Origin: Bdellovibrionales bacterium | Lineage (GTDB): Bacteria > Bdellovibrionota > Bdellovibrionia > Bdellovibrionales > UBA1609 | NCBI GenBank assembly: GCA_007128005.1 | Contig: SKYF01000104.1 | Location: 1,232-65,231 of the forward strand | Length of the DNA: 64,000 bases | Direction of reading: 5' to 3' | Shown here: one piece after another, positions 38,167 to 50,526 of the stretch | How the letters are laid out: each line of letters opens with the position of its first letter | Numbering within the stretch: the first letter of the stretch is position 1 | Translations under genes and position numbers: made by a program | The notes under the pieces: generated by a model | Databases searched by the model: none | Told to the model about the DNA's origin: nothing | Seen by the model: the letters and a program-made list of their open reading frames with translations, nothing else

Positions 38167-39000
38167 TTAGCTGGCATCCGTGGAGTTGCGAATCTGCAGA
38201 GCCTGAGTACCCAAAAAGTACAAAATCGCCAAAATAATCAAGGCGATGAGCATAAAGCGCAGCAGAACCCCAAAAGTCCAGGGCTCCATATCTTCACTGT
38301 CTTTGGCCACAGCAGGGGCCCTCTCTACTTTGATCAAATCCGGGCGCAGATTTTCTTCCTGTTCGCGCTTAAGAGGTGTCATGGGCCGTCTTTCACCCTG
38401 CTCAGGCAGTTTGCGCTCCTCCACCCAACCCATCTGACCGCCGCGAAGCCCCCGGCGGCGGGCCCCTGCTTGGTCGGACATTCCCGTGCCGGCAGACAAA
38501 AACCCCGTGCTTCCCGTGTATCGATCACGGCCGGCCTTTCCTCCCTCAGCCCCTGCCACCATGGTCCGCGGCCTGGAGCTTCGGCCATCAGAGACCCAGC
38601 CTCCGGGCTCTGAAGCCCGATCTCCTCCCGGGCCGGCTCTCACCCGCGCGGCCTCAATGTACTCCCTTCGACCACCATCCCCCTCTCCTCCAGCTCCACC
38701 AGACCCTGCACCACTGCCGTCCCCAGCCCCTGCTGTTCCTAGGCCTACATGAGGTCGGCCACTGGCCAATGAGAACTCGGCAAACTCCTGGTCACAGATT
38801 CCCTGAACTCCCCCTTGGGCCCCCAAGGAGGGCAGCTCCCCTGTCTCAAGAATGCAGGCCAAGTACTCCCCAAAATATCCTTGAGCCCACTGCCGAAAGG
38901 CATCGTTGAATTGATAGATCACCCCCATCATCACGACAAAGGTGATAACCAAAATCAGTAGGTACTCAAGCATGGCCTGCCCACTTTGAGAGTTTCTCAT
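38167..39000 (-). CDS. Flp/TadE-type leader protein with Gly/Arg-rich disordered body and C-terminal TM anchor
   Basis: The ATG at 39000 gives MRNSQSGQAMLEYLLILVITFVVMM, a class-III (G-xxxx-EY) prepilin motif. About 180 aa of G/R/A-rich low complexity follows, encoded by a visibly GC-rich stretch at about 38400-38760. It ends in the TM segment WTFGVLLRFMLIALIILAILYFLG. Divergent from flp. Confidence 0.6.
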   Translation of the reverse strand: MRNSQSGQAMLEYLLILVITFVVMMGVIYQFNDAFRQWAQGYFGEYLACILETGELPSLGAQGGVQGICDQEFAEFSLASGRPHVGLGTAGAGDGSGAGSGGAGGEGDGGRREYIEAARVRAGPGGDRASEPGGWVSDGRSSRPRTMVAGAEGGKAGRDRYTGSTGFLSAGTGMSDQAGARRRGLRGGQMGWVEERKLPEQGERRPMTPLKREQEENLRPDLIKVERAPAVAKDSEDMEPWTFGVLLRFMLIALIILAILYFLGTQALQIRNSTDAS

Positions 39001-39262
39001 ACCTCTGTCATCGGACACTGTCTCAAAAAAATTGAAAAAGTCTGTAAAAAGAGGCCATCCCACTTTGATTTGTCTCACTCTGAAACAAAATCGCCCTTCC
39101 AAGTGGTCCTGCGCTGTCTATGGAGTTGACAGTCAAAAAACAATTTTTGGTTTCTGAATATTTTGTGTTAATATTAAAAACAGTTCATCGCAGTGATTCC
39201 AGTCCCGTCGCCCTGACACGTCCTCCTGGAAGCACAAAAAGCCATAAAAAAACAAACGACTA

Positions 39263-39310: not shown

Positions 39311-39502
39311 ATGAAAAAGCTAAAGCAAACATTTCAACATCTCATTGAAGATGAGTCCGGACAAGGTGCCACAGAGTACATCCTTATTATGGTGATTGTT
39401 GTGGCTGTAGTCATCGCCTTCGGAGGAGAATTCAGAAACCGTGTTGTCGGAGCTGCCGAAAGTCTTGGCGCCCAAATCAGTGAAGCTATGAACTTTAGAT
39501 AA
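39311..39502 (+). CDS. flp: Flp-family type IVb pilin
   Basis: 63 aa with the Flp motif SGQGATEYILIMVIVVAVVIAF (G/ATEY processing site followed by a hydrophobic helix). Confidence 0.9.
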   Translation: MKKLKQTFQHLIEDESGQGATEYILIMVIVVAVVIAFGGEFRNRVVGAAESLGAQISEAMNFR

Positions 39503-39530: not shown

Positions 39531-39725
39531 ATGACGACGGAACTGATATTACTTTTAGCCATTTACCTTCTGCTGATTGTGGGAGTGTTTTTTGGCGAAC
39601 TGGGTCCTATTGAGACCTTTCATCGGTCGGCTCCCCGCCTGGGAGCTCAGATCGAGAGAGATATCTCCATAGGCCATGAATTTCAAAGCCCCAGAGCCAA
39701 CAAAGGAGTGCGCTGGGTTGAGTGA
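39531..39725 (+). CDS. small hydrophobic-N-terminus protein of the tad locus (leaderless pilin-like?)
   Basis: 64 aa beginning MTTELILLLAIYLLLIVGVFF. The N-terminus resembles a mature Flp N-terminus without a leader. GGAG lies 9 nt upstream. Confidence 0.45.
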   Translation: MTTELILLLAIYLLLIVGVFFGELGPIETFHRSAPRLGAQIERDISIGHEFQSPRANKGVRWVE

Positions 39726-39731
39726 GGAACA

Positions 39732-40244
39732 ATGATTCATTCAGCAAGTCTATCCATTGTAGCTATTCCCGGATTGATTCTGCTCGCTGGAGTCATTGAT
39801 GACCTGCGCTCAAAAAAGATTCACAACAAACTTGTACTTGCAGCTTTTCTGCTGGCAGTGGTTAGCCAATCCGTGATTCACGGCTTAGGGGCCTTGCCAC
39901 AAGCGGGACTGGCTGTGGGAGCTGCTTTTTTTGTGAGCCTTCCCCTGGTTCTGGCTCGGGCTCTAGGAGCCGGAGATATGAAACTGCTAATGGCTCTGGC
40001 CCCACTTTTTTTATGGACAGATATCCTGTGGATGTTCTTTTACGCTCTCATCTGGGGCGCTCTTTTGGGAATCATTCGCTCCATGCTACAGGGCCAAGCA
40101 GGACAGCTTGTCAGGAACACCTTGGCGCTCACCGGACCCAATCGACCCGATCGCCAGTCTCTTCAGAGTATCCCTTTTTCCGTAGCTCTCCTCTTTGGCT
40201 GGATGACTCACTTGAGCTGGCTGCAAATGGGGGGGTATCTATGA
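39732..40244 (+). CDS. tadV: A24-family prepilin peptidase (TadV/CpaA)
   Basis: 170 aa, polytopic, with both catalytic Asp contexts (GVIDDLRSKKI and LGAGDMKLLMAL). Confidence 0.85.
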   Translation: MIHSASLSIVAIPGLILLAGVIDDLRSKKIHNKLVLAAFLLAVVSQSVIHGLGALPQAGLAVGAAFFVSLPLVLARALGAGDMKLLMALAPLFLWTDILWMFFYALIWGALLGIIRSMLQGQAGQLVRNTLALTGPNRPDRQSLQSIPFSVALLFGWMTHLSWLQMGGYL

Positions 40245-40486
40245 GAAACTCCTCCGGCCAGATGCTCGTAGAGACCATCCTGATTATGGCTTTGCTATTA
40301 GCTGTTTTCTTGCTTCTTGTAGGACAGTTTCGCAGCAATGAGCTGGCGGCTCGGCTTGTCACCAGCCCCTGGGTTCACCTCTCCGGACTTATCCAAAACG
40401 GAGTTTGGGGCCCTCCCTCCCAGTCCATGCTGGTTCATCCGGAAAATGTTTCTCGGCAGAGATCTGAGAGGGGGGACGACCTATGA
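40241..40486 (+). CDS. TadE-like pseudopilin
   Basis: The ATG at 40241 overlaps the peptidase stop (ATGA) and gives MRNSSGQMLVETILIMALLLAVFLLLVG. The longer track ORF (from 40013) is an out-of-frame read-through of the peptidase gene. Confidence 0.7.
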   Translation: MRNSSGQMLVETILIMALLLAVFLLLVGQFRSNELAARLVTSPWVHLSGLIQNGVWGPPSQSMLVHPENVSRQRSERGDDL

Positions 40487-41145
40487 CATCCTCAGGATTT
40501 GCAGCAAAGCAAGGTCGAGCCGCAAGAGGAATGATTGCCTTGGATTTTCTATTTGCCCTGGTTCTTATAATGGGACTGACGAGCATACTGTTCTCCCTGG
40601 CCCTCACTCTGACCGCAGCCAGTATCACCCAGTACATCACCTATGCTTCCGCCAGACAATACTATGCCGCTCACTTGACAACTACAACCCAAACTCAGTT
40701 GGCGTTGGCAAAATACAACTCTCTTCTACAAAATCCCGCTCTCAGTGGCCTATACCGCATTGGCTGGTTTGAGGTGGGAAGAAATCCCCTGCCGGGAGAT
40801 ATGACTCAGGAAGATCTGGTGGGAATGGGCTATGAGCAACAGGGACAGAACAAACTGACTCGATTCATCGGCATTGCCACTCCCTTTACGGCCAAAATTC
40901 TTGACCGCAGTATTCCATTTTTAGGAGAAACTTACTCCGAGGATCTTGGTGCCTCGGCAAGGGAGCGATTTAAGATTTATATTGGCTCCTACCTTGGAAG
41001 AAGCCCTTCGCTCTATGAGTGTCAGACCTTTATGCGTCACGATGAGAGATTTCAAGCTATTCTCGACCTCAGCTCAGGGGCAGGCAAGTATGGAGATTTT
41101 ATTAACAATGTTGGCTATCACCTCATTTCGGACAACGGGTGCTAA
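40483..41145 (+). CDS. TadE/TadG-like pilus assembly protein
   Basis: N-terminal GRAARGMIALDFLFALVLIMGLTSILF (pseudopilin-like, with D in place of E). 4-nt overlap with the previous gene. Confidence 0.55.
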   Translation: MTSSGFAAKQGRAARGMIALDFLFALVLIMGLTSILFSLALTLTAASITQYITYASARQYYAAHLTTTTQTQLALAKYNSLLQNPALSGLYRIGWFEVGRNPLPGDMTQEDLVGMGYEQQGQNKLTRFIGIATPFTAKILDRSIPFLGETYSEDLGASARERFKIYIGSYLGRSPSLYECQTFMRHDERFQAILDLSSGAGKYGDFINNVGYHLISDNGC

Positions 41146-41146
41146 G

Positions 41147-41629
41147 ATGAAAGCCTATAAAGATTCAGAAAAAGGCATTGCCACCATTGAGATCCTGCCC
41201 CTCCTGATCGTCTTTGTCATTTTGATCAGCTATGGCTTAGGCCTCTACGGAGCTATCCACACGGCCATCCTCCACTCAATTGCGGCAAGATCCTATGCCT
41301 TTCACACCTTTAACTTTAGAGCCGACACCAGCCTGTTTAGCGACCGGGCGATCAACCAGGGATCTATTGTTCACTATCAGAATATTGGCTTTCGCACCCA
41401 CTTTATTGTGCGGGAGAATTACGACACTGGCGACCAAGTCATCCCCTCCGAGCGCCCCATTGCGGTGGGCCGACTGAGGGAGCCCGCTGAGGCTGGGGGC
41501 AACAAGGAGATTCTCCACAACGAGCGGGTGATGGCAATTTCAGGACGAAATCGAAATGTTGAAGTGGACCCCATGTGGATCATGGTGGCCTATGGTCTTT
41601 GTATTCGACAGTCCTGTGGGGGGGATTAG
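41147..41629 (+). CDS. TadE-like pseudopilin
   Basis: The ATG at 41147 gives MKAYKDSEKGIATIEILPLLIVFVILISYG. The track ORF start at 40946 lies inside the previous gene. Confidence 0.65.
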   Translation: MKAYKDSEKGIATIEILPLLIVFVILISYGLGLYGAIHTAILHSIAARSYAFHTFNFRADTSLFSDRAINQGSIVHYQNIGFRTHFIVRENYDTGDQVIPSERPIAVGRLREPAEAGGNKEILHNERVMAISGRNRNVEVDPMWIMVAYGLCIRQSCGGD

Positions 41630-41632
41630 AAA

Positions 41633-42475
41633 ATGAATCACAATGAAACTCGTACACTTTGGATCAGCATTTTCGCAGCCCTGTTTGCCGTTTTCCTGCT
41701 CTATAGCTACACTCAGGAAAAGAGCTCACAGCTGACTCGCCAATTTGGGGCCAAGCAGAGAGTGGTCATTGCCGCTGTGGATATCAACGAAATGCAGACC
41801 ATTGATGAGACCATGCTCCAAATTGTTGAGCGTCCCATTGATTTTGTACAGCCCAGCGCCTTTACTAACCCTGAAGCCGTGGTGGGAATGGTGGCCCTGG
41901 CTCCCATTCGTAAAGATGAACAAGTCCTAGAAAATAAGGTGATGGAGCCTGGCCCTTTGACTGGGCTATCCCTTCAAGTGGCTCCCACCCGGCGGGCCGT
42001 CACCATCCCCATTGATGAGATGCGCGGAGTGGCCAAGCTGATTAAGCCTGGGGATAGAGTGGACATCATCGCCGCCCTGGATGTGGGTCGAGGAGTCAAT
42101 CAGCGCCGAGAGGTGAAGACTCTAATGCAGGATGTAGTGATTCTGGCGACAGGCCTTCGTGTGGTCCATGAGCTACCCCGCCTGTACGAACTTCAGGGGC
42201 GTTCGGAATATGTGAGAAACCTGCGGGCCGACACCAACTTCTCAACCATTACCATTGAGGCCAGCCCCAAAGAGGCCCAGGATCTCATCTATATACTTTC
42301 AACATCACCGGCCTCCCTGTTTTTAACCCTGAGGCACCCCAGCGATCACCAGAAGTCCACACTTCCAGCAAGCACCATTGAGAGCGTTCTAGGCCAGGTC
42401 AATCCACCAGCTCTGCAGCAGGGGATACGCCAACCCGCAGCCAGTCCTGCAGGTCAGCCTAGGAGAGGAAGATAA
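41633..42475 (+). CDS. cpaB: Flp pilus assembly protein CpaB/RcpC
   Basis: N-terminal TM, a SAF-like segment (VVIAAVDINEMQTIDETML), and an RcpC-like region (VTIPIDEMRGVAKLIKPGDRVDIIA). Confidence 0.8.
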   Translation: MNHNETRTLWISIFAALFAVFLLYSYTQEKSSQLTRQFGAKQRVVIAAVDINEMQTIDETMLQIVERPIDFVQPSAFTNPEAVVGMVALAPIRKDEQVLENKVMEPGPLTGLSLQVAPTRRAVTIPIDEMRGVAKLIKPGDRVDIIAALDVGRGVNQRREVKTLMQDVVILATGLRVVHELPRLYELQGRSEYVRNLRADTNFSTITIEASPKEAQDLIYILSTSPASLFLTLRHPSDHQKSTLPASTIESVLGQVNPPALQQGIRQPAASPAGQPRRGR

Positions 42476-43944
42476 TGAGATTTTTATTACTTATATTTTT
42501 TATAATTCCCAGCCTGTCTGTGGCTCAAGCCAATAGATCAGGAACTGAAACCCGGGATATAGATCTCTATGTGGGACTACCTCACGATGAAACTCTTCCT
42601 CGTCTTCCTGGAAGCTTTGACCTCAGTGGTACCTATCGCTCGGTGACGCGAATTGAAACCCGACGAGGACAAAGCCAGCTGAGGTTTGTACCCACCAAAG
42701 AGGGCATTGGAACGGTTATTATTAAGGACAAAAACACCGGACAGATCGTCTATCAGCTCACTGTCAGAGTGGGCAAAACTGACCTGCAGCGAGTGGCTCG
42801 CGAAATCAGAAGCCTTCTGTCCACTATCGAGGGTGTTACTGTTCGAGTTTTGAACAACCGAGTCGTGGTCGATGGCCAAATCTTGCTTCCTTCGGATATG
42901 AAACGAATTCACAGTGTGGTCAAACAGTACGGTCCCCTGGCCACAACCCTAGTGACCCTAAGCCCCATTGCACAAAACAAGATTGCCGAGATCATTGAAA
43001 GAGACATCAACAATCCAGAAATCTACGTTCGAGCTGTCAACGGCAAATTTATCCTCGATGGAATGGCCAATAGCCCTGAGGAGAGAGATCGAGCTGAAAT
43101 TATAGCTAAGATGTATGTCCCCGACGTGGTGGTGGAAGAAGCCGTAGCCGATAAGAGGGTGTTGGAGCGAAGAACGGATGTCGTGATCAATTTAATCAAG
43201 ATCAAACAGGCCGCCGCTCCCGAACCAGAGAAGATCATCCAAATGGTGATTCACTTTGTGGAGCTGCAAAAGGATTACACCAGAGGCTTTCGCTTTCAGT
43301 GGACACCAGATATTGGCGATGGCTCTACCCTTCAATTCTCAACAGGAGGACGCTCTCCCGGAGGACTTGTGGGGACACTGACGGGAACCATCTCCAACCT
43401 GCTTCCTAAGCTCAACTGGGCCAAGCAACATGGCTTTGCCAGAGTCCTACAGAGTTCAAGTCTGATTGTCCAAGATGGCCGCCAGGGCACCCTGAACTCT
43501 CTGACCCGAGTCCCCTATCAGGTGATCAGCGCCACCGGTCAGCCGGGAACCAACTTTGAGGAAGTGGGCTTGAGAACCAATATCACTCCTCAGGTAATGG
43601 GGGCGCGGTCTGACAGCGTACGACTCGATATGAACTTTTCCGTCAAAAATCTGCTCAGCTACACAGACCAAGGTCCTCTGACCTCAAGTCGAGAGATCAA
43701 CACCATGATACATGTGCGCAGCGGCCAAAGTGCGGCCGTTGGGGGTCTTATTTCCAGCGACACGGGCACAAACTACAACAAACTGCCCTCCAATGCCTCG
43801 CAGAACCCGATCTTTAGCCTCTACGCCTCAAGGGACTTCCGCAACAATCAAAGCCAGTTTGTGGTCTTTGTCACTCCGAGCATTCGAGCCTCGGCCAGTC
43901 AGGGATCAGATCGAATCAAGCAGAAGTTCCGCCTCCCAGACTAA
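42475..43944 (+). CDS. cpaC: Tad secretin CpaC/RcpA
   Basis: Signal peptide and a C-terminal secretin domain (VRSGQSAAVGGLISSD...QFVVFVTPSI). Confidence 0.85.
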   Translation: MRFLLLIFFIIPSLSVAQANRSGTETRDIDLYVGLPHDETLPRLPGSFDLSGTYRSVTRIETRRGQSQLRFVPTKEGIGTVIIKDKNTGQIVYQLTVRVGKTDLQRVAREIRSLLSTIEGVTVRVLNNRVVVDGQILLPSDMKRIHSVVKQYGPLATTLVTLSPIAQNKIAEIIERDINNPEIYVRAVNGKFILDGMANSPEERDRAEIIAKMYVPDVVVEEAVADKRVLERRTDVVINLIKIKQAAAPEPEKIIQMVIHFVELQKDYTRGFRFQWTPDIGDGSTLQFSTGGRSPGGLVGTLTGTISNLLPKLNWAKQHGFARVLQSSSLIVQDGRQGTLNSLTRVPYQVISATGQPGTNFEEVGLRTNITPQVMGARSDSVRLDMNFSVKNLLSYTDQGPLTSSREINTMIHVRSGQSAAVGGLISSDTGTNYNKLPSNASQNPIFSLYASRDFRNNQSQFVVFVTPSIRASASQGSDRIKQKFRLPD

Positions 43945-43996: not shown

Positions 43997-44010
43997 GAAA
44001 ACCTGGAGGT

Positions 44011-46287
44011 GTGGCTGTGGCTCTACATCAAAACTGTCACCTAATCGGTGTTGTTGGCGGCAAGGGCGGGGTGGGAAAAAGCGTTTTTGCGGCCAATTTA
44101 GCCTGCGCCACCCTTCTTGAGATGCGAGCCAAGACCCTACTGATTGATCTAGACGCCAAGAGCTGCGGTGATCAAAGCATTATCTTGGGACTTCGCCCTC
44201 CCAAAAACATTATGGACATCACCAACTCTTCTGTTGCCGTGAACCCTCAGTCCTTGAGCAGCTTGGTAGGACAGCACCCCTCGGGGCTATCCTATATCAG
44301 TGCGGTCAGCAGCCCAGATCAGAGCTTGAATGTGGCCCCAGACCTACTGCGCAAACAGATTTTTTCCCTCAGCCATTTCTACAGCTTTATTATTGTGGAC
44401 CTGGGCTGTGATATCACCCCCGCACAGATGGCCATATTTCAAGATGCCAGTGCCGTTGTCTTGGTCACCACTCCCGAAGTATTGGTTGTCAATCAGACCC
44501 GTAAGCTGCTCAATGACATGATGGCCGCCACCCTTCCTGCTGAACTCTTTCAGGTGGTTTTAAACAAAGTCAGTCGCACCGGTTTAGATCCAAGGGCAAT
44601 TTCTCAAAGTCTCGGGCGGCCCATCATCGGATCCATACCCCAAGACGATATCACCGCCTACGCAGCTCTTCAGCGCTCCACTCCCTTTGTCATTGGGGCT
44701 CCCAACACTCCACTCAGCGCCGCGCACCACGAAGTGGTCCGCCGTCTGACAGGGGGTATCTTACAGAAACTCAAGGCTTTGAGCCGACCCCAACTGAAAT
44801 TTGGCTCTGAGAAGGCAGGAGGCTCCTCCGGCAAGTCCCTACCCACAAAAACTTCAGAGGGGCCTGCCACGAGGAGGGGGGTGTCCTCTGGCAAACAGCG
44901 AGACCCCATCACCCTACTCAAGCTGCAAATCCATAGCGAGCTGATCAAGGAGATGGATCTGAAGAAGGATGTCTCCAACACTCAAGGCGACCCCGAAAAG
45001 GAAAAAGAACTTAGACAAAAAACCCAGAGAGTCATCACTCAGGTGACCGACAAGCTGGGACAGGGTCTCTCCCGAGAGGAGCGCTCACGAGTGATTAAGG
45101 AAGTCCTGGATGAATCTTTGGGTCTAGGCCCCCTAGAGGACCTTCTGGCAGACCCCACAGTCACTGAGATTATGGTGAATGGAGCTGACAAGATCTATAT
45201 GGAAAAAAATGGCAAATTGACCTTGAGCCAAATCACCTTTACTTCGAATCTGCAACTGCGCAATGTGATTGAGAGAATCGTAACCCCCTTAGGGCGACGA
45301 ATTGATGAAAAGACCCCTTATGTGGATGCCAGGCTTGCTGACGGCAGCAGGGTCAATGCTGTCATCGAGCCCCTGTCCATTGATGGGCCAGCTGTCACTA
45401 TCCGTAAATTTCCCCAGGACCGCATCACGGCTGACGACTATGTCACACGCTTCAACTCTATGACCAAGCCGATGGTTGATTTTCTGAGAATCTGCATCGA
45501 ACAGGGCTTGAATGTGATTATATCTGGCGGCACGGGCTCCGGTAAAACAACTCTGCTCAATGTGCTTTCCGGCTTTATTCCGAGCAATGAGCGAATCATC
45601 ACCGTTGAAGACGCCGCCGAACTCCAGCTCAAACAGGAGCATGTGGTTCGGTTGGAAACTCGTCCCGCCAATATGGAGGGCACTGGGGAAATCTCGATCC
45701 GCGACCTGATCCGCAATTCTCTGAGGATGCGCCCGGACCGGATCGTGGTGGGCGAGTGTCGCGATGGGGCCGCACTCGACATGCTTGCAGCTATGAACAC
45801 CGGCCACGATGGTTCAATGACCACGGTTCACTCCAACAGCCCAAAGGAGGCCGTCAGCCGCCTGGAAACTCTGTGTCTGATGGCTGGAATGGAGTTGCCT
45901 GCCAAGGCTATCCGGGAGCAGATTTCTGGAGCCGTTGATTTGATCATTCAAATCAGTCGTCTCAGTGATGGCAGTAGAAAGATCACCAGTATCACCGAGG
46001 TCGTCGGCATGCAGGGCGATGCCATCACCCTTCAAGAGATCTTTCGCTTTAAAGAAGAGGGCTTTGATAAAAACCGAAAAATCATTGGCCGCTTTCAGCC
46101 CATGGGATTGATTCCCACATTTATTGAAAAATTTGAGCAGCGAGGTGTGATGATCCCTAGAAATCTCTTTACAGGGGAGGCCGGCGGTGGAGCCACGCAG
46201 ACTCCCTCTGGGCAAAAGCCAGGACCCCCACGATTCACTCCAGGAGCTCGCCCCCCGCTTAAGAAAGCCAGTGGAGGGGATAGCTGA
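44011..46287 (+). CDS. fused CpaE/TadZ-like ParA/MinD ATPase + CpaF/TadA secretion ATPase
   Basis: The N-terminal ~250 aa carry the deviant Walker [11 protein letters not shown] Ser/Gly/Lys-rich linker follows. The C-terminal ~430 aa are CpaF-like ([14 protein letters not shown], Walker [38 protein letters not shown]). The start may be the GTG at 44017, which has better SD spacing. Confidence 0.85.
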
Positions 46288-47168
46288 TGGTCAACTTCCT
46301 CGTCAGTAATGAGTTCTTGCTGATCCCCCTTTTCGCTGTGGCTGTCTTTGTGGTCTCCTATCTGAATCTTGACCGCATCCTTGATTTTCTACACCGCAAG
46401 AGCCTCGGCAGTCGGGAAGAGGTTTTGCGCCTAATGGACTTGATGTTCGTAGAGACCGACCGCAATAAAGTGACTCTTGCCATGCTGCTGATGAGCTTTG
46501 GACTCGGGGCTTTGTTTTTTTTGGTGGCTTGGCCCAATATCCTTGCAGGTTTCTTTTTTGGTAGTCTCATCACTATGATGGGCTGGTCCGTGCCCAAACT
46601 AGTGATCACGGCCCTTTGGCAGAATCGATGCAATACAGTTGTTGACCAGATGGTCGATGGTCTTACGATCATGGCCAATGGAGTCAAATCGGGTCTAAGT
46701 GTCACTCAGTCCATGGAGAGAGTGGTGGAGAGTATGGGAGGACCCTTAGGCCAGGAGTTTGGTCTTGTCCTCAAAAAAATTCGCCTTGGGATGACTTTAG
46801 AGGAAGCGCTCACTGAGTTTGCCGAACGCGTCCCTCAACAGGACGTTCAAATGTTTGTCACTGGCGTCAATATCCTTAAGGAAACTGGTGGGAATCTGGC
46901 TGAAACCTTTCAGACCATTGTGACGACAATCCGTGAGCGGCAAAAAATCCATAAAAAGATTAAGGCCATGACCCAAATGGCTACCACCCAGGCCATCATC
47001 ATTGTGATGGTGCCTTTTGTCCTGCTCGGTATCTTTGCCGTGGCAGACCCGGCCTACGTCAAGCCCCTTTTCACCTCGGTTTTAGGCTGGATTGCCCTGC
47101 TTTTAATACTCTTTTTGCAAGTAATCGGTGGAGTATTTATGAAAAAAATTGTTACAATTAAAGTGTAA
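46287..47168 (+). CDS. tadB: TadB-type T2SSF platform protein
   Basis: T2SSF cytoplasmic domain (ANGVKSGLSVTQSMERV...LGMTLEEALTEFAERV...LKETGGNLAETF) flanked by TM segments. ATGA overlap with the ATPase gene. Confidence 0.85.
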   Translation: MVNFLVSNEFLLIPLFAVAVFVVSYLNLDRILDFLHRKSLGSREEVLRLMDLMFVETDRNKVTLAMLLMSFGLGALFFLVAWPNILAGFFFGSLITMMGWSVPKLVITALWQNRCNTVVDQMVDGLTIMANGVKSGLSVTQSMERVVESMGGPLGQEFGLVLKKIRLGMTLEEALTEFAERVPQQDVQMFVTGVNILKETGGNLAETFQTIVTTIRERQKIHKKIKAMTQMATTQAIIIVMVPFVLLGIFAVADPAYVKPLFTSVLGWIALLLILFLQVIGGVFMKKIVTIKV

Positions 47169-47193: not shown

Positions 47194-48972
47194 ATGAAGT
47201 TTAATCTGCTCTTGTCCACGGTTTTTGGACTCTTTGTCTCTCAGGCCGCTCTTGGCCTTGTGGATATGAAAAATGCCAACTTTTCCACTACCTTTACGGA
47301 CATCCAAGTCCCTGGGTCGGGCTATGACCTGCGCATTCAGCGCACCTACAACAGCCGCACGATCTTTAGCGGAATTTTTGGCTATGGCTGGTGCTCAGAC
47401 TTTGAGACCAAGCTTCAGGTCACCGCTGAGGGCAACCTCATGGTCACCGAATGTGGTGGGGGACTGGAGATCAACTATACGGCTCAGGATTTTGACCCAA
47501 AGGCTGTGGGCAACACCATCAATACCATTCTCGCAGAAGTAAAAAAGCGCAACCCCAGTATGAGCGAGCAGGCCCTCAATAAGCTTCGCGAGGAAATGCA
47601 GACCAACCAGTTTTTAAGGGAAGAGTTTGCCAGACAGTTAAATCTCACTGGACAAGCCAGTCCGGGAACGAGGTATTCAGCAAGTGGCCGAGAAAGTGAA
47701 AATATCGTCCTGCGCGAAGGGGTTTACGTTCGCACACTTGATGATGGAAGTTTTGAGCGATTCAATCAAAATGGTCAGCTGATCCAGCTCAATGACCGAG
47801 CCGGAAACTACTTAAAAGTCGACTGGAATAACAACCAAATCACCCGCATCACTGACAACAATGGGCGCCAGCTAGTCTTTCACTACGATCCCAAGACAAG
47901 GCGAGTGGCTCGCATTACAGGCCCTGGAGAGCTCAGAGCCACTTATAAATTTGATAGTGAGAACCTGACTGAGGTCACCAATGCATGGAATGAGACCTTC
48001 AAATATAGGTATGATGATCTCCACAATATCGTGCGCATTGACTATCCGGACAAGACTTACCAGGAATTGAGGTACAATAGAGATCGAGATTGGGTGGTTG
48101 GTTTTAGGGATCGCCGGGGCTGCGTTGAAACCTACAATTATGAATCCAACCCCAGAGACCCTAACAATCACTTCTGGTCCACTGTCCAAAAGAAGTGTGG
48201 GGACGAAGTGGTCAACAACAGCCGCTATGAATTTTGGCACAGACCACGAACCGATGGGCCCGGACAGTATCTGCATCGCGTGCGCTCAGATAACAACGGT
48301 GTGATTACAGATATTGTCTACCACCCGGTTTTTGGACTGCCACTTTCAATTGTGAGGAATTCCGAGCGAACAACTTACACCTATAGAAACAACGGACAGG
48401 TGGCGACTAAAGAGGAACCTTTCCGGCATACGACTTTTGCTTATAAAAATCGGTGCAACAAGGTCTCAGACGTCCTCGTCCGCTATTTGGGGCCCGCGGA
48501 GGATCAACTGACCCCCGCCCAAAGGGCTCAGTTGCAGCAACAAAGAGAGGCCGCCAGTGTTGAGGGCAAAGGCAAAGCCACAGCTAAAGCCAGAGCAGAG
48601 ACTTTTCAGGGGCGCGAGGTCTTGAAGACAATCAGAACTCAATACGAGTACAACCATCCCCGTTGCTTTTTGGTCAGAGCAAGAAACTCAGAGGGTCAAA
48701 ATATCACCTTGGCCTATGATGGACGAGGACGCATCAACCGCATTCGCGATCAAGCTCGTAGGGAAATACGGATTGACTATGAGGAGCGCTTTGGCAAGCC
48801 CTCACGGGTGCACCGTCCGGGAATGGGGACCATGGTTGTGACCTACGGCCCTGACGGTGAGATCACCAATGTGGACAGTAAGGAGGGGCCCACCGTAGCC
48901 CTTCAGGTGGCAACTGTATTTAACGGCTTATTGGAAATGATCGCCCCCGCAGTGGGCGACACAAATATATAG
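47194..48972 (+). CDS. secreted YD/RHS-repeat protein (no recognisable toxin tip)
   Basis: ATG at 47194 after AAAGGAG, with a signal peptide (LFVSQAALG). Multiple YD repeats are present (VFHYDPKTRRVARITGPG, TYKFDSENLTEVTN, KYRYDDLHNIVRIDYPD). The track ORF start at 47149 lies inside tadB. Confidence 0.8.
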   Translation: MKFNLLLSTVFGLFVSQAALGLVDMKNANFSTTFTDIQVPGSGYDLRIQRTYNSRTIFSGIFGYGWCSDFETKLQVTAEGNLMVTECGGGLEINYTAQDFDPKAVGNTINTILAEVKKRNPSMSEQALNKLREEMQTNQFLREEFARQLNLTGQASPGTRYSASGRESENIVLREGVYVRTLDDGSFERFNQNGQLIQLNDRAGNYLKVDWNNNQITRITDNNGRQLVFHYDPKTRRVARITGPGELRATYKFDSENLTEVTNAWNETFKYRYDDLHNIVRIDYPDKTYQELRYNRDRDWVVGFRDRRGCVETYNYESNPRDPNNHFWSTVQKKCGDEVVNNSRYEFWHRPRTDGPGQYLHRVRSDNNGVITDIVYHPVFGLPLSIVRNSERTTYTYRNNGQVATKEEPFRHTTFAYKNRCNKVSDVLVRYLGPAEDQLTPAQRAQLQQQREAASVEGKGKATAKARAETFQGREVLKTIRTQYEYNHPRCFLVRARNSEGQNITLAYDGRGRINRIRDQARREIRIDYEERFGKPSRVHRPGMGTMVVTYGPDGEITNVDSKEGPTVALQVATVFNGLLEMIAPAVGDTNI

Positions 48973-49007: not shown

Positions 49008-49361
49008 ATGAGATCCTCCCCTTTCCACTCAGTGCTTATCGCCACCTTGACTCTGATAGTTTTTCTCTCAGGACAGCTCGCCTTCGGCCAGCAACAGTCC
49101 TCTCGGCGGGGAGCTCCAGGTTCAACCGCCCAACAGGAACTCGATAGATATAGGGGGGGGCCCTCCAACCAGGATCTGTCCGGTCCACAGACCTACGCCG
49201 TCAGCACTGACCAGGATTCCTGCACCGATAAGAGATACTGCCAGGGACGGGTCAACTCCACCGGAAGATTTCACAGCCAAAGCAGAGCCATGGAGCAAGT
49301 CAGACTTTATTTGGGTGAGGGCGCAAAACCTGGTCCAGACGGCTCAGAGACAGTTGAGTAG
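49008..49361 (+). CDS. small secreted protein, hit-locus (Bd0108)-like by position
   Basis: SD AAGGAG upstream and a signal peptide (LTLIVFLSGQLAFG). The mature part is Q/S/G/D-rich. It contains ACCAGGAT at 49168 and 49210 (42-bp spacing) and a G8 run at 49153-49160. Confidence 0.65.
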   Translation: MRSSPFHSVLIATLTLIVFLSGQLAFGQQQSSRRGAPGSTAQQELDRYRGGPSNQDLSGPQTYAVSTDQDSCTDKRYCQGRVNSTGRFHSQSRAMEQVRLYLGEGAKPGPDGSETVE

Positions 49362-49811: not shown

Positions 49812-50149
49812 GGCTCTTGTTCCAGCTGATCTTCTTGAAAAAAGAAGTCCGTTGAGCCTTGGTAAAGCTCCTGTGCCTGGCTCTTGAGATATTGACTGCT
49901 GCGCTCAAGTTTGAGTTCAAGTCGTCGCTGAGTGGCCTGTGTGGTACGAGTTGTGGCTTTCCCCCAAAGGTTTTGCACAAGCAACACTGCTCCCTGAGCC
50001 ACCGACTCCACAGGTTGCACCAGACTCGATTGGCGAGCCCAGCTCAAGGCCCTCTCCTCTAGAGTCTGGGGGCCAATTCTTATCTGCAGCAATATAATAA
50101 TAAAAAATGTAAGTGCTATACTTTTAAAGAAAAAAAATAGACTTCCCAT
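49808..50149 (-). CDS. single-pass membrane hypothetical protein
   Basis: N-terminal TM (FFFFKSIALTFFIIILLQI). The start overlaps the CheY-like stop (TGATG) and is preceded by GGGGGGGGAG. Confidence 0.5.
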   Translation of the reverse strand: MGSLFFFFKSIALTFFIIILLQIRIGPQTLEERALSWARQSSLVQPVESVAQGAVLLVQNLWGKATTRTTQATQRRLELKLERSSQYLKSQAQELYQGSTDFFFQEDQLEQEP

Positions 50150-50526
50150 CAGATCTCCCCCCCCTGTTGCACGGCTTTTTCAATGGCTTGAACCAGGTCT
50201 TTGGCCTCAAATGGTTTAGTCACATAATGACAGCATCCAGCCTCAATTGCCTTTAACATCATCGTCTCCTGATCGAGGGTGGAGCAGGCAATGACCTTAA
50301 CTCGAGGCTGCCTTTTAACAATCTCCGTGGTGGCTTCAACGCCACTTTTTTTTGGCATCACTAAGTCCATAAGAATGACATCTGGCTTGAGCTGCTCCGC
50401 CAATTCCACTGCCTCAACTCCGTCTTGGGCCTCCCCTACAATGACAAAGCCCCGTGGTTCTAAGAGCTCTTTTAAAAGCTCTCGGATAAAAGGGGCATCA
50501 TCTGCAATCAATATACGAATAGACAT
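50149..50526 (-). CDS. single-domain CheY-like response regulator
   Basis: Receiver motifs ILIADDAPFIRE, the phospho-acceptor context DVILMDLVMP, and a conserved T/K context (IACST.., YVTKPF). Confidence 0.9.
   Translation of the reverse strand: MSIRILIADDAPFIRELLKELLEPRGFVIVGEAQDGVEAVELAEQLKPDVILMDLVMPKKSGVEATTEIVKRQPRVKVIACSTLDQETMMLKAIEAGCCHYVTKPFEAKDLVQAIEKAVQQGGEI

Follow-up and report, generated by a model that had tools for sequence, protein, structure and literature searches.

A TadZA-type gene, very probably a fusion of tadZ and tadA, in the Tad pilus locus of an uncultured member of the Bdellovibrionota

Introduction

The closest described counterpart of the gene considered here is the "atypical TadZA fusion ATPase" of Bdellovibrio bacteriovorus, reported in a 2026 preprint by Tesseur, Denise, Santin and Laloux, where it is described as having a flexible linker and no receiver-like domain (ARD), as encoded by a gene that could not be deleted, and as shuttling rapidly between the cell poles with a RomR-dependent bias towards the invasive pole (bioRxiv 10.64898/2026.07.08.737194). 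According to the same work, which states that the fusion had been predicted earlier, the region made of the TadZ part and the linker is both necessary and sufficient for binding of the polarity hub RomR, and the C-terminally tagged protein accumulates as a full-length fusion (bioRxiv 10.64898/2026.07.08.737194). The same fusion is mentioned in a 2026 paper on Peredibacter. Here, we analyse a gene of this type, tadZA, located at 44011..46287 (+) of a stretch of 64,000 nucleotides (positions 1,232 to 65,231 of contig SKYF01000104.1, assembly GCA_007128005.1, a Bdellovibrionales bacterium of the UBA1609 lineage), hereafter called the window. The architecture is already known, and every element of the interpretation given in a preliminary description of this gene is already in print.

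In B. bacteriovorus HD100, the neighbouring genes bd0109, for an RHS/YD protein, bd0110, and bd0111, for TadA, are transcribed together (PMC3818213), tadC is encoded outside the locus, and the tad loci are apparently devoid of TadV, so that PilD has been proposed to process Flp (bioRxiv 10.64898/2026.07.08.737194). The Caulobacter crescentus system can be compared with both halves of the fusion. Its CpaF is the closest solved relative of the C-terminal half, and its N-terminal NTD0 (residues 1-79) is disordered and dispensable (PMC11300603). Its CpaE resembles the N-terminal half in being a ParA/MinD-family ATPase whose coding sequence immediately precedes that of the motor, but it forms a protein of its own, which has a receiver domain at its N-terminus and an amphipathic helix at its C-terminus; whereas the module of the window is tethered to its motor, CpaE has been modelled from electron cryotomography as six dimers (12 copies) around each CpaF hexamer, and contacts between these dimers have been proposed to involve the receiver domains (PMC13170226).

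Two further kinds of protein are useful for comparison. The TadZ proteins of Aggregatibacter actinomycetemcomitans and Eubacterium rectale (PDB 3FKQ) are, like the N-terminal module, ParA/MinD-fold ATPases that belong to tad loci and serve for positioning or as a hub, but are free-standing and combine an ARD with the ATPase domain. The ParA-family ATPase of Chlorobium tepidum (PDB 3EA0) shares with this module a single ParA/MinD-like domain and the lack of a receiver domain, but it is a free-standing protein of 245 aa.

The fused gene and its two ATPase modules

Taken together, the data presented below make it very likely that tadZA, from a member of the Bdellovibrionota, is of the TadZA type and arose by fusion of adjacent tadZ (cpaE) and tadA (cpaF) genes within a Tad (type IVc/Flp) pilus locus. 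In the encoded protein, a ParA/MinD ATPase domain that comes from TadZ but has lost the receiver-like domain would be tethered through a 37-residue disordered linker to the N-terminus of a complete TadA motor.

As already noticed in the preliminary description, a single uninterrupted open reading frame (ORF) covers both modules, from 44011 to 46287 on the forward strand, and comprises 758 codons closed by a TGA stop. A Shine-Dalgarno sequence, GGAGG (44005..44009, +), lies 7 nt before the GTG at 44017 and just 1 nt before the GTG at 44011, and the true start is therefore probably GTG 44017, with a product of 756 aa. Both lengths exist among the public gene calls for the identical sequence (756 aa for P0001, 758 aa for P0270), and residues are given below in the 758-aa numbering. 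At the other end, the tadZA stop and the ATG of tadB share 1 nt (TGATG). A scan for promoters and terminators gave counts that do not exceed the shuffled expectation, with nothing relevant at the module junction, and a tblastn search of the window with both modules returned the fusion alone, there being no other ParA/MinD-like or T2SSE gene in it.

The N-terminal module (residues 1-260; 44011..44790, +) is delimited by Pfam, NCBIfam, the AlphaFold2 model, Foldseek and its nearest unfused relatives. Pfam recognises CbiA/ParA/AAA_31 over residues 10-220, while the NCBIfam models minD_arch and CpaE_hom_Actino match residues 8-248, both under their curated cut-offs. The deviant Walker A motif announced by the preliminary description is indeed found, in the form GGKGGVGKS (residues 16-24; 44056..44082, +), with the signature Lys18 and the P-loop Lys23-Ser24; its KGGVGKS portion (residues 18-24) corresponds to the Walker A type K/RGGxGx[ST] of the TadZ/CpaE family, and G20, V21 and G22 are invariant, and K18 nearly so, among the distant fused relatives. 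A Walker B-like sequence, FIIVDLG with Asp130, was located by motif search at 44386..44406 (+). The AlphaFold2 model of residues 1-256 is confident, with predicted local distance difference test (pLDDT) scores of 80-95, and Foldseek superposes this part on the ParA-family ATPase 3EA0, MinD and FlhG, the nearest solved structures for residues 10-250, with template modelling (TM) scores of 0.8-0.9. The strongest match to a solved structure is that to 3EA0 (profile E 6e-42; Foldseek TM 0.88, root-mean-square deviation 2.5 Å). A long helix with a conserved segment closes the module; this segment, checked as a possible MinD/CpaE-like amphipathic membrane helix, shows hydrophobic moments of 0.3-0.6.

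An ARD is typical of the TadZ/CpaE family, yet some definitions do not require it. At the N-terminus of the fused protein none is found, and since the ParA domain begins at residue 10, there is no room for such a domain, in agreement with what had been stated beforehand.

The C-terminal half contains the TadA/CpaF motor, which overall spans residues 298-720, its ATPase core (NTD2 plus C-terminal domain) being delimited at residues 371-720 (45121..46170, +) by Pfam, NCBIfam, structures of the PDB and motifs. The T2SSE family (PF00437) matches residues 371-657 with an E-value of 1e-60, so that the ParA-type and T2SSE annotations proposed as a check of the preliminary description are both recovered. 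Among the NCBIfam models, TIGR03819 ("TadA family") scores best, over residues 336-662, with 326 bits and thus below the equivalog cut-off of 373. Against the solved structures, residues 335-707 find their best relatives in Caulobacter CpaF (E about 1e-118), while the other solved ATPases score lower (FlaI 1e-37, VirB11 1e-29, PilT about 1e-10), and these comparisons place the C-terminal half nearer to CpaF/TadA than to the PilB, PilT, GspE or VirB11 subfamilies. Four ATPase motifs are intact, namely the Walker A GGTGSGKTT (residues 506-514; 45526-45552, +), the Asp box (residues 527-538; 45589-45624, +), the Walker B (residues 576-585; 45736-45765, +) and the His box (residues 597-609; 45799-45837, +), and the CpaF module can accordingly be called complete, as had been claimed. 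Besides, tadB, the platform gene, directly follows the TadA part, and the same locus encodes Flp pilin, RcpC and RcpA. The protein ends with a variable Gly/Pro/Lys-rich tail (residues 721-758; 46171..46284, +), recognised from the alignment, its composition and the AlphaFold2 model.

The linker and the stoichiometry of the two modules

Conservation was measured on an alignment of 46 full-length homologues, in which the only collapse concerns residues 261-297 (44791..44901, +), with column identities of 0.24-0.35 and gaps. These 37 residues form a variable, disordered Gly/Ser/Lys-rich linker, with pLDDT scores below 40 and, counted over residues 261-298, 7 G, 7 S and 5 K. The preliminary description had placed a Ser/Gly/Lys-rich linker at about residues 255-330: while the linker itself is confirmed, these boundaries were too wide, as residues 298-370 (44902..45120, +) are conserved helices that belong to the TadA part. 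More precisely, residue 335 aligns with residue 111 of CpaF, where the alignment with the CpaF of the PDB begins, and this N-terminal region of the motor therefore corresponds to the three-helix NTD1 of CpaF. Since NTD1 is preceded in CpaF by the disordered NTD0, the linker occupies the place of the disordered N-terminus of a free TadA.

A covalent tether would plausibly fix the two modules at a 1:1 stoichiometry, on the assumption that neither internal initiation nor linker cleavage occurs. Within the linker, an in-frame GTG at 44881 (Val291) follows an AGGAGG at 44872-44877 (+) and would yield a TadA of 468 aa, which is a normal size. This points to the alternative that the gene is fused and yet the cell also, or instead, makes a separate TadA, through internal initiation or through cleavage of a linker that the AlphaFold2 model depicts as disordered and exposed, in which case the stoichiometry would not be 1:1. 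Such a scenario is nevertheless very unlikely, given that the spacing between AGGAGG and GTG is just 3 nt, that the linker sequence is not conserved, and that the C-terminally tagged protein of B. bacteriovorus accumulates at full length (bioRxiv 10.64898/2026.07.08.737194). The AGGAGG-GTG combination (44872-44883) is probably coincidental, because it is made of Arg and Gly codons in a non-conserved region.

Origin of the N-terminal module

An exhaustive search of 1.84 billion representative proteins was made with residues 1-262. Below the fused proteins, it ranks relatives of about 400 aa, which carry 130-150 extra N-terminal residues and make up 63 of the 150 entries listed; of 30 of these unfused relatives that were tested, 19 match Response_reg. 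For two of them, P0171 and P0161, the surroundings were examined: both are encoded immediately before tadA, and after rcpC, in loci of the canonical order Flp-RcpC-[REC/ParA]-TadA-TadB-TadC-TadE-Tad, where REC denotes the receiver domain. The separate, adjacent TadZ/CpaE and TadA/CpaF genes that the preliminary description took to be the rule are thus seen in both canonical loci examined. In the window, the N-terminal module is found where tadZ is expected, after the secretin gene and ahead of the TadA sequence with which it shares an ORF. Since its nearest unfused relatives are receiver-plus-ParA proteins, two of which are encoded directly upstream of tadA, a derivation of the module from TadZ/CpaE is accepted on sequence grounds, the ARD feature of the family being absent.

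Several points weigh against the reading of the gene as a tadZ-tadA fusion of the TadZA type. The N-terminal module scores better against 3EA0, MinD and FlhG than against the only solved TadZ, the E. rectale 3FKQ, which matches the profile of the fused modules with an E-value of 2.8e-11 and partially (profile positions 4-148), and its Walker A sequence KGGVGKS is of the MinD type. In addition, the full-length AlphaFold2 model, built from the 46 close homologues, is poor in its C-terminal half, and because the pLDDT of the TadA core is below 50, this model is silent on the contacts between modules; it was not used for these contacts or for oligomers. Finally, orthology to the TadZA of HD100 is presumed from the architecture, the locus order and the taxon labels.

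The first of these points could reflect an N-terminal module recruited independently, as a MinD/FlhG/ParA-type ATPase domain fused to TadA and not derived from TadZ. The better scores against MinD, FlhG/FleN and 3EA0 than against 3FKQ, the absence of the receiver domain, and the top NCBIfam match to archaeal MinD (79.7 bits, below the cut-off) go in this direction. However, the score of the CpaE homologue model TIGR03815 nearly equals that of MinD, and the TadZ family has been reported as FleN/MinD-like with archaeal affinities (PMC6668835). In the light of the closest unfused full-length relatives, which are built of receiver and ParA domains as in CpaE/TadZ, of the canonical tad loci in which both examined relatives sit between rcpC and tadA, and of the exact tadZ slot held by the module itself between the secretin gene and tadA, independent recruitment is highly improbable.

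Genuineness and spread of the fusion

The fusion is conserved across several Bdellovibrionota lineages. Two contigs of different origin, 80,128 and 46,350 bases long, encode the identical protein, and more than 100 clusters at 68-85% identity have the same architecture. The listed homologues in this identity range are 738-775 aa long with 92-100% query coverage, all but one of them contain both the ParA-type and the T2SSE families, some sit on contigs of 1-2.8 Mb, and several are named by NCBI [quoted passage not shown]. At greater distance, in the search of the 1.84 billion representatives, 13 of the top 40 matches reach well past the ParA domain and all of these are fused, or are fused proteins cut by a contig end, the rest being short fragments or unclassifiable. 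Nine complete fused representatives of 716-762 aa have 27-59% identity in the N-terminal module and all contain CbiA and T2SSE; the source names of the distant fused proteins include Pseudobdellovibrionaceae, Bacteriovoracia and Bdellovibrionota.

At the level of genomes, a contig search with a profile of the N-terminal modules followed the Walker A pattern alone and returned mostly MinD/ParA genes of unrelated phyla, but at least three relevant loci (L001-L003) were found among the 80 matches listed. Their TadZA proteins are 51% identical to that of the window over the full length, with fused genes coding for 719-729 aa in loci labelled Oligoflexia, Pseudobdellovibrionaceae and Bdellovibrionales.

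The separate, adjacent arrangement of tadZ and tadA in canonical loci and the low complexity of the junction could recommend the idea of an artefact, an error having erased a stop or a frameshift between two genes, but its probability is negligible, since the identical protein recurs on separate contigs from different sources, which answers the earlier concern about a lost stop codon, since the homologues at 68-85% identity and the relatives at 27-59% N-terminal identity are uninterrupted in many assemblies, including contigs of 1-2.8 Mb, and since the tagged fusion protein was seen at full length in B. bacteriovorus (bioRxiv 10.64898/2026.07.08.737194).

Two divergent cases were observed during these searches. 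P0005 (1158 aa, NCBI), a high-scoring homologue, contains PF16796 and several extra P-loop families together with T2SSE in place of the ParA families, and is possibly a different TadA fusion. The other case, L083 (7001-9151; GCA_043825615.1, labelled "bacterium"), codes for a 716-aa ParA and T2SSE fusion with 28% and 53% identity to the two modules of the window, in a tad locus that is arranged differently, with RcpC upstream, no adjacent secretin gene, and TadB and TadC further downstream; a protein near this fusion gives a weak Por_Secre_tail match. The L083 case raises the possibility that the fusion exists outside the Bdellovibrionota, or that it arose more than once.

The tad locus of the window

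The genes surrounding tadZA follow the order Flp, TadV, TadE/F-like, RcpC, RcpA, TadZA, TadB and RHS protein, all on the forward strand. The locus begins with an Flp prepilin of 63 aa (39311..39502, +) with the sequence GQG/ATEYILIMVIVV, whose Flp1_like match is weak (E 1e-5, below the curated cut-off) and which has a homologue in L001. It is followed by a TadV/CpaA-type prepilin peptidase (39732..40244, +; Peptidase_A24 E 6e-12, with DD and GAGD motifs) and by three TadE/TadF-like minor-pilin candidates (40241..41629, +), with likely starts at 40241, 40483 and 41147 and hydrophobic pilin-type N-termini; no Pfam family matches these three ORFs, which were assigned by reading their sequence. 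RcpC/CpaB (41633..42475, +) and the RcpA/CpaC secretin (42475..43944, +), both recognised by family matches, precede tadZA. Downstream, a TadB-type platform protein (46287..47168, +) gives the sole T2SSF match among the locus ORFs scanned, and directly after tadB comes a secreted protein with RHS/YD repeats and DUF6531 (47194..48972, +), which holds the same place in L001-L003.

This whole order is retained in L001, and in L002 and L003 for the portion present on each contig, while the distant fused proteins P0187 and P0138 are likewise embedded in an RcpC-secretin-TadZA-TadB core. As in HD100, the fused gene belongs to a locus with RcpA and TadB, followed by the RHS/YD protein and without tadC; the tadA-tadB-RHS portion matches the published order of the HD100 hit locus (tad locus 1), with the RHS protein as the counterpart of Bd0109. 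Differences exist as well: the window protein comes from a different, uncultured relative, and its locus has a TadV-type prepilin peptidase whereas the HD100 tad loci apparently lack TadV. TadV-type homologues or Peptidase_A24 genes occur at the same place in L001, L002, L084 and the P0138 contig.

With a single T2SSF (TadB/TadC-type) match among the locus ORFs scanned, the gene for the partner platform protein seems to be located outside the locus, as published for HD100 tadC. L083 and L084, which are distant fused-gene loci, each carry two T2SSF genes.

Some additional ORFs lie within or around the locus. Right behind the Flp gene, a 64-aa ORF (39531-39725, +) with a very hydrophobic N-terminus, MTTELILLLAIYLLLIVGVFF, may code for a second small pilin-like or membrane protein. 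On the opposite strand, a divergent ORF (38167-39102, -; likely start near 39000) without any Pfam match starts in the manner of a pilin, with the N-terminus MRNSQSGQAMLEYLLILVITFVV, continues with a long low-complexity stretch rich in Gly, Ala and Arg, and has a hydrophobic segment towards its C-terminus; its product could serve the same system as a pilin-like or anchor protein. Beyond the RHS gene, a small ORF of 117 aa (49008-49361, +), with a signal-peptide-like N-terminus and low complexity, occupies the position expected for Bd0108. Finally, 1.2 kb downstream of the locus, a single-domain CheY-like response regulator of 125 aa is encoded at 50149-50526 (-; Response_reg E 2e-31), which is too short to be RomR.

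Proposed mechanism

By analogy with what is known of the families, the TadA part would work as a hexameric bifunctional motor that drives both extension and retraction of the Flp pilus through TadB/TadC (as for CpaF, PMC11300603), and the TadZ part would bind ATP and may dimerise. Judging from the B. bacteriovorus protein, the region made of the TadZ part and the linker is expected to bind the polarity hub RomR. In that case, RomR would supply in trans the receiver-type domain that a canonical TadZ has in cis, and the motor would thereby be biased towards the invasive pole, the site where the Tad machine would be required for stable attachment to prey and for invasion. The preliminary description had gone as far as regarding the positioning factor as part of the motor, which finds support in the presence of both modules in one polypeptide, the same coupling being argued for the TadZA of B. 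bacteriovorus.

The covalent tether probably replaces the recruitment of TadA by a ring of free TadZ/CpaE. Indeed, as the Caulobacter ring is modelled as six CpaE dimers with the receiver domains as proposed contacts, a fused design devoid of ARD could not form such a 12:6 ring. A bolder and unlikely extension of this model is that the six ParA/MinD modules tethered within each TadZA hexamer, with their intact KGGVGKS Walker A, would pair in an ATP-dependent manner and act, beyond localisation, as a built-in clutch setting the state or direction of TadA (extension versus retraction), a tethered ring of 6 copies thereby replacing the 12 copies of CpaE.

Significance

The fusion analysed here is already recognised and under experimental study in B. 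bacteriovorus, and the window provides one more conserved instance of it. What is added concerns, on the one hand, the protein itself, with corrected linker boundaries, a likely start codon, and a linker that stands in place of the disordered NTD0 of a free TadA. On the other hand, the fusion and its locus order are extended to records labelled Bdellovibrionales, Pseudobdellovibrionaceae and Oligoflexia, with fused proteins also labelled Bacteriovoracia and Bdellovibrionota, and L083 hints at such a fused gene in an unclassified bacterium, where the tad locus is organised in another way. For the biology of the predatory Bdellovibrionota, which need the Tad machine to hold and invade their prey, the interest of this fusion is that it unites the factor choosing the site of the Tad pilus machine with the motor that runs it.

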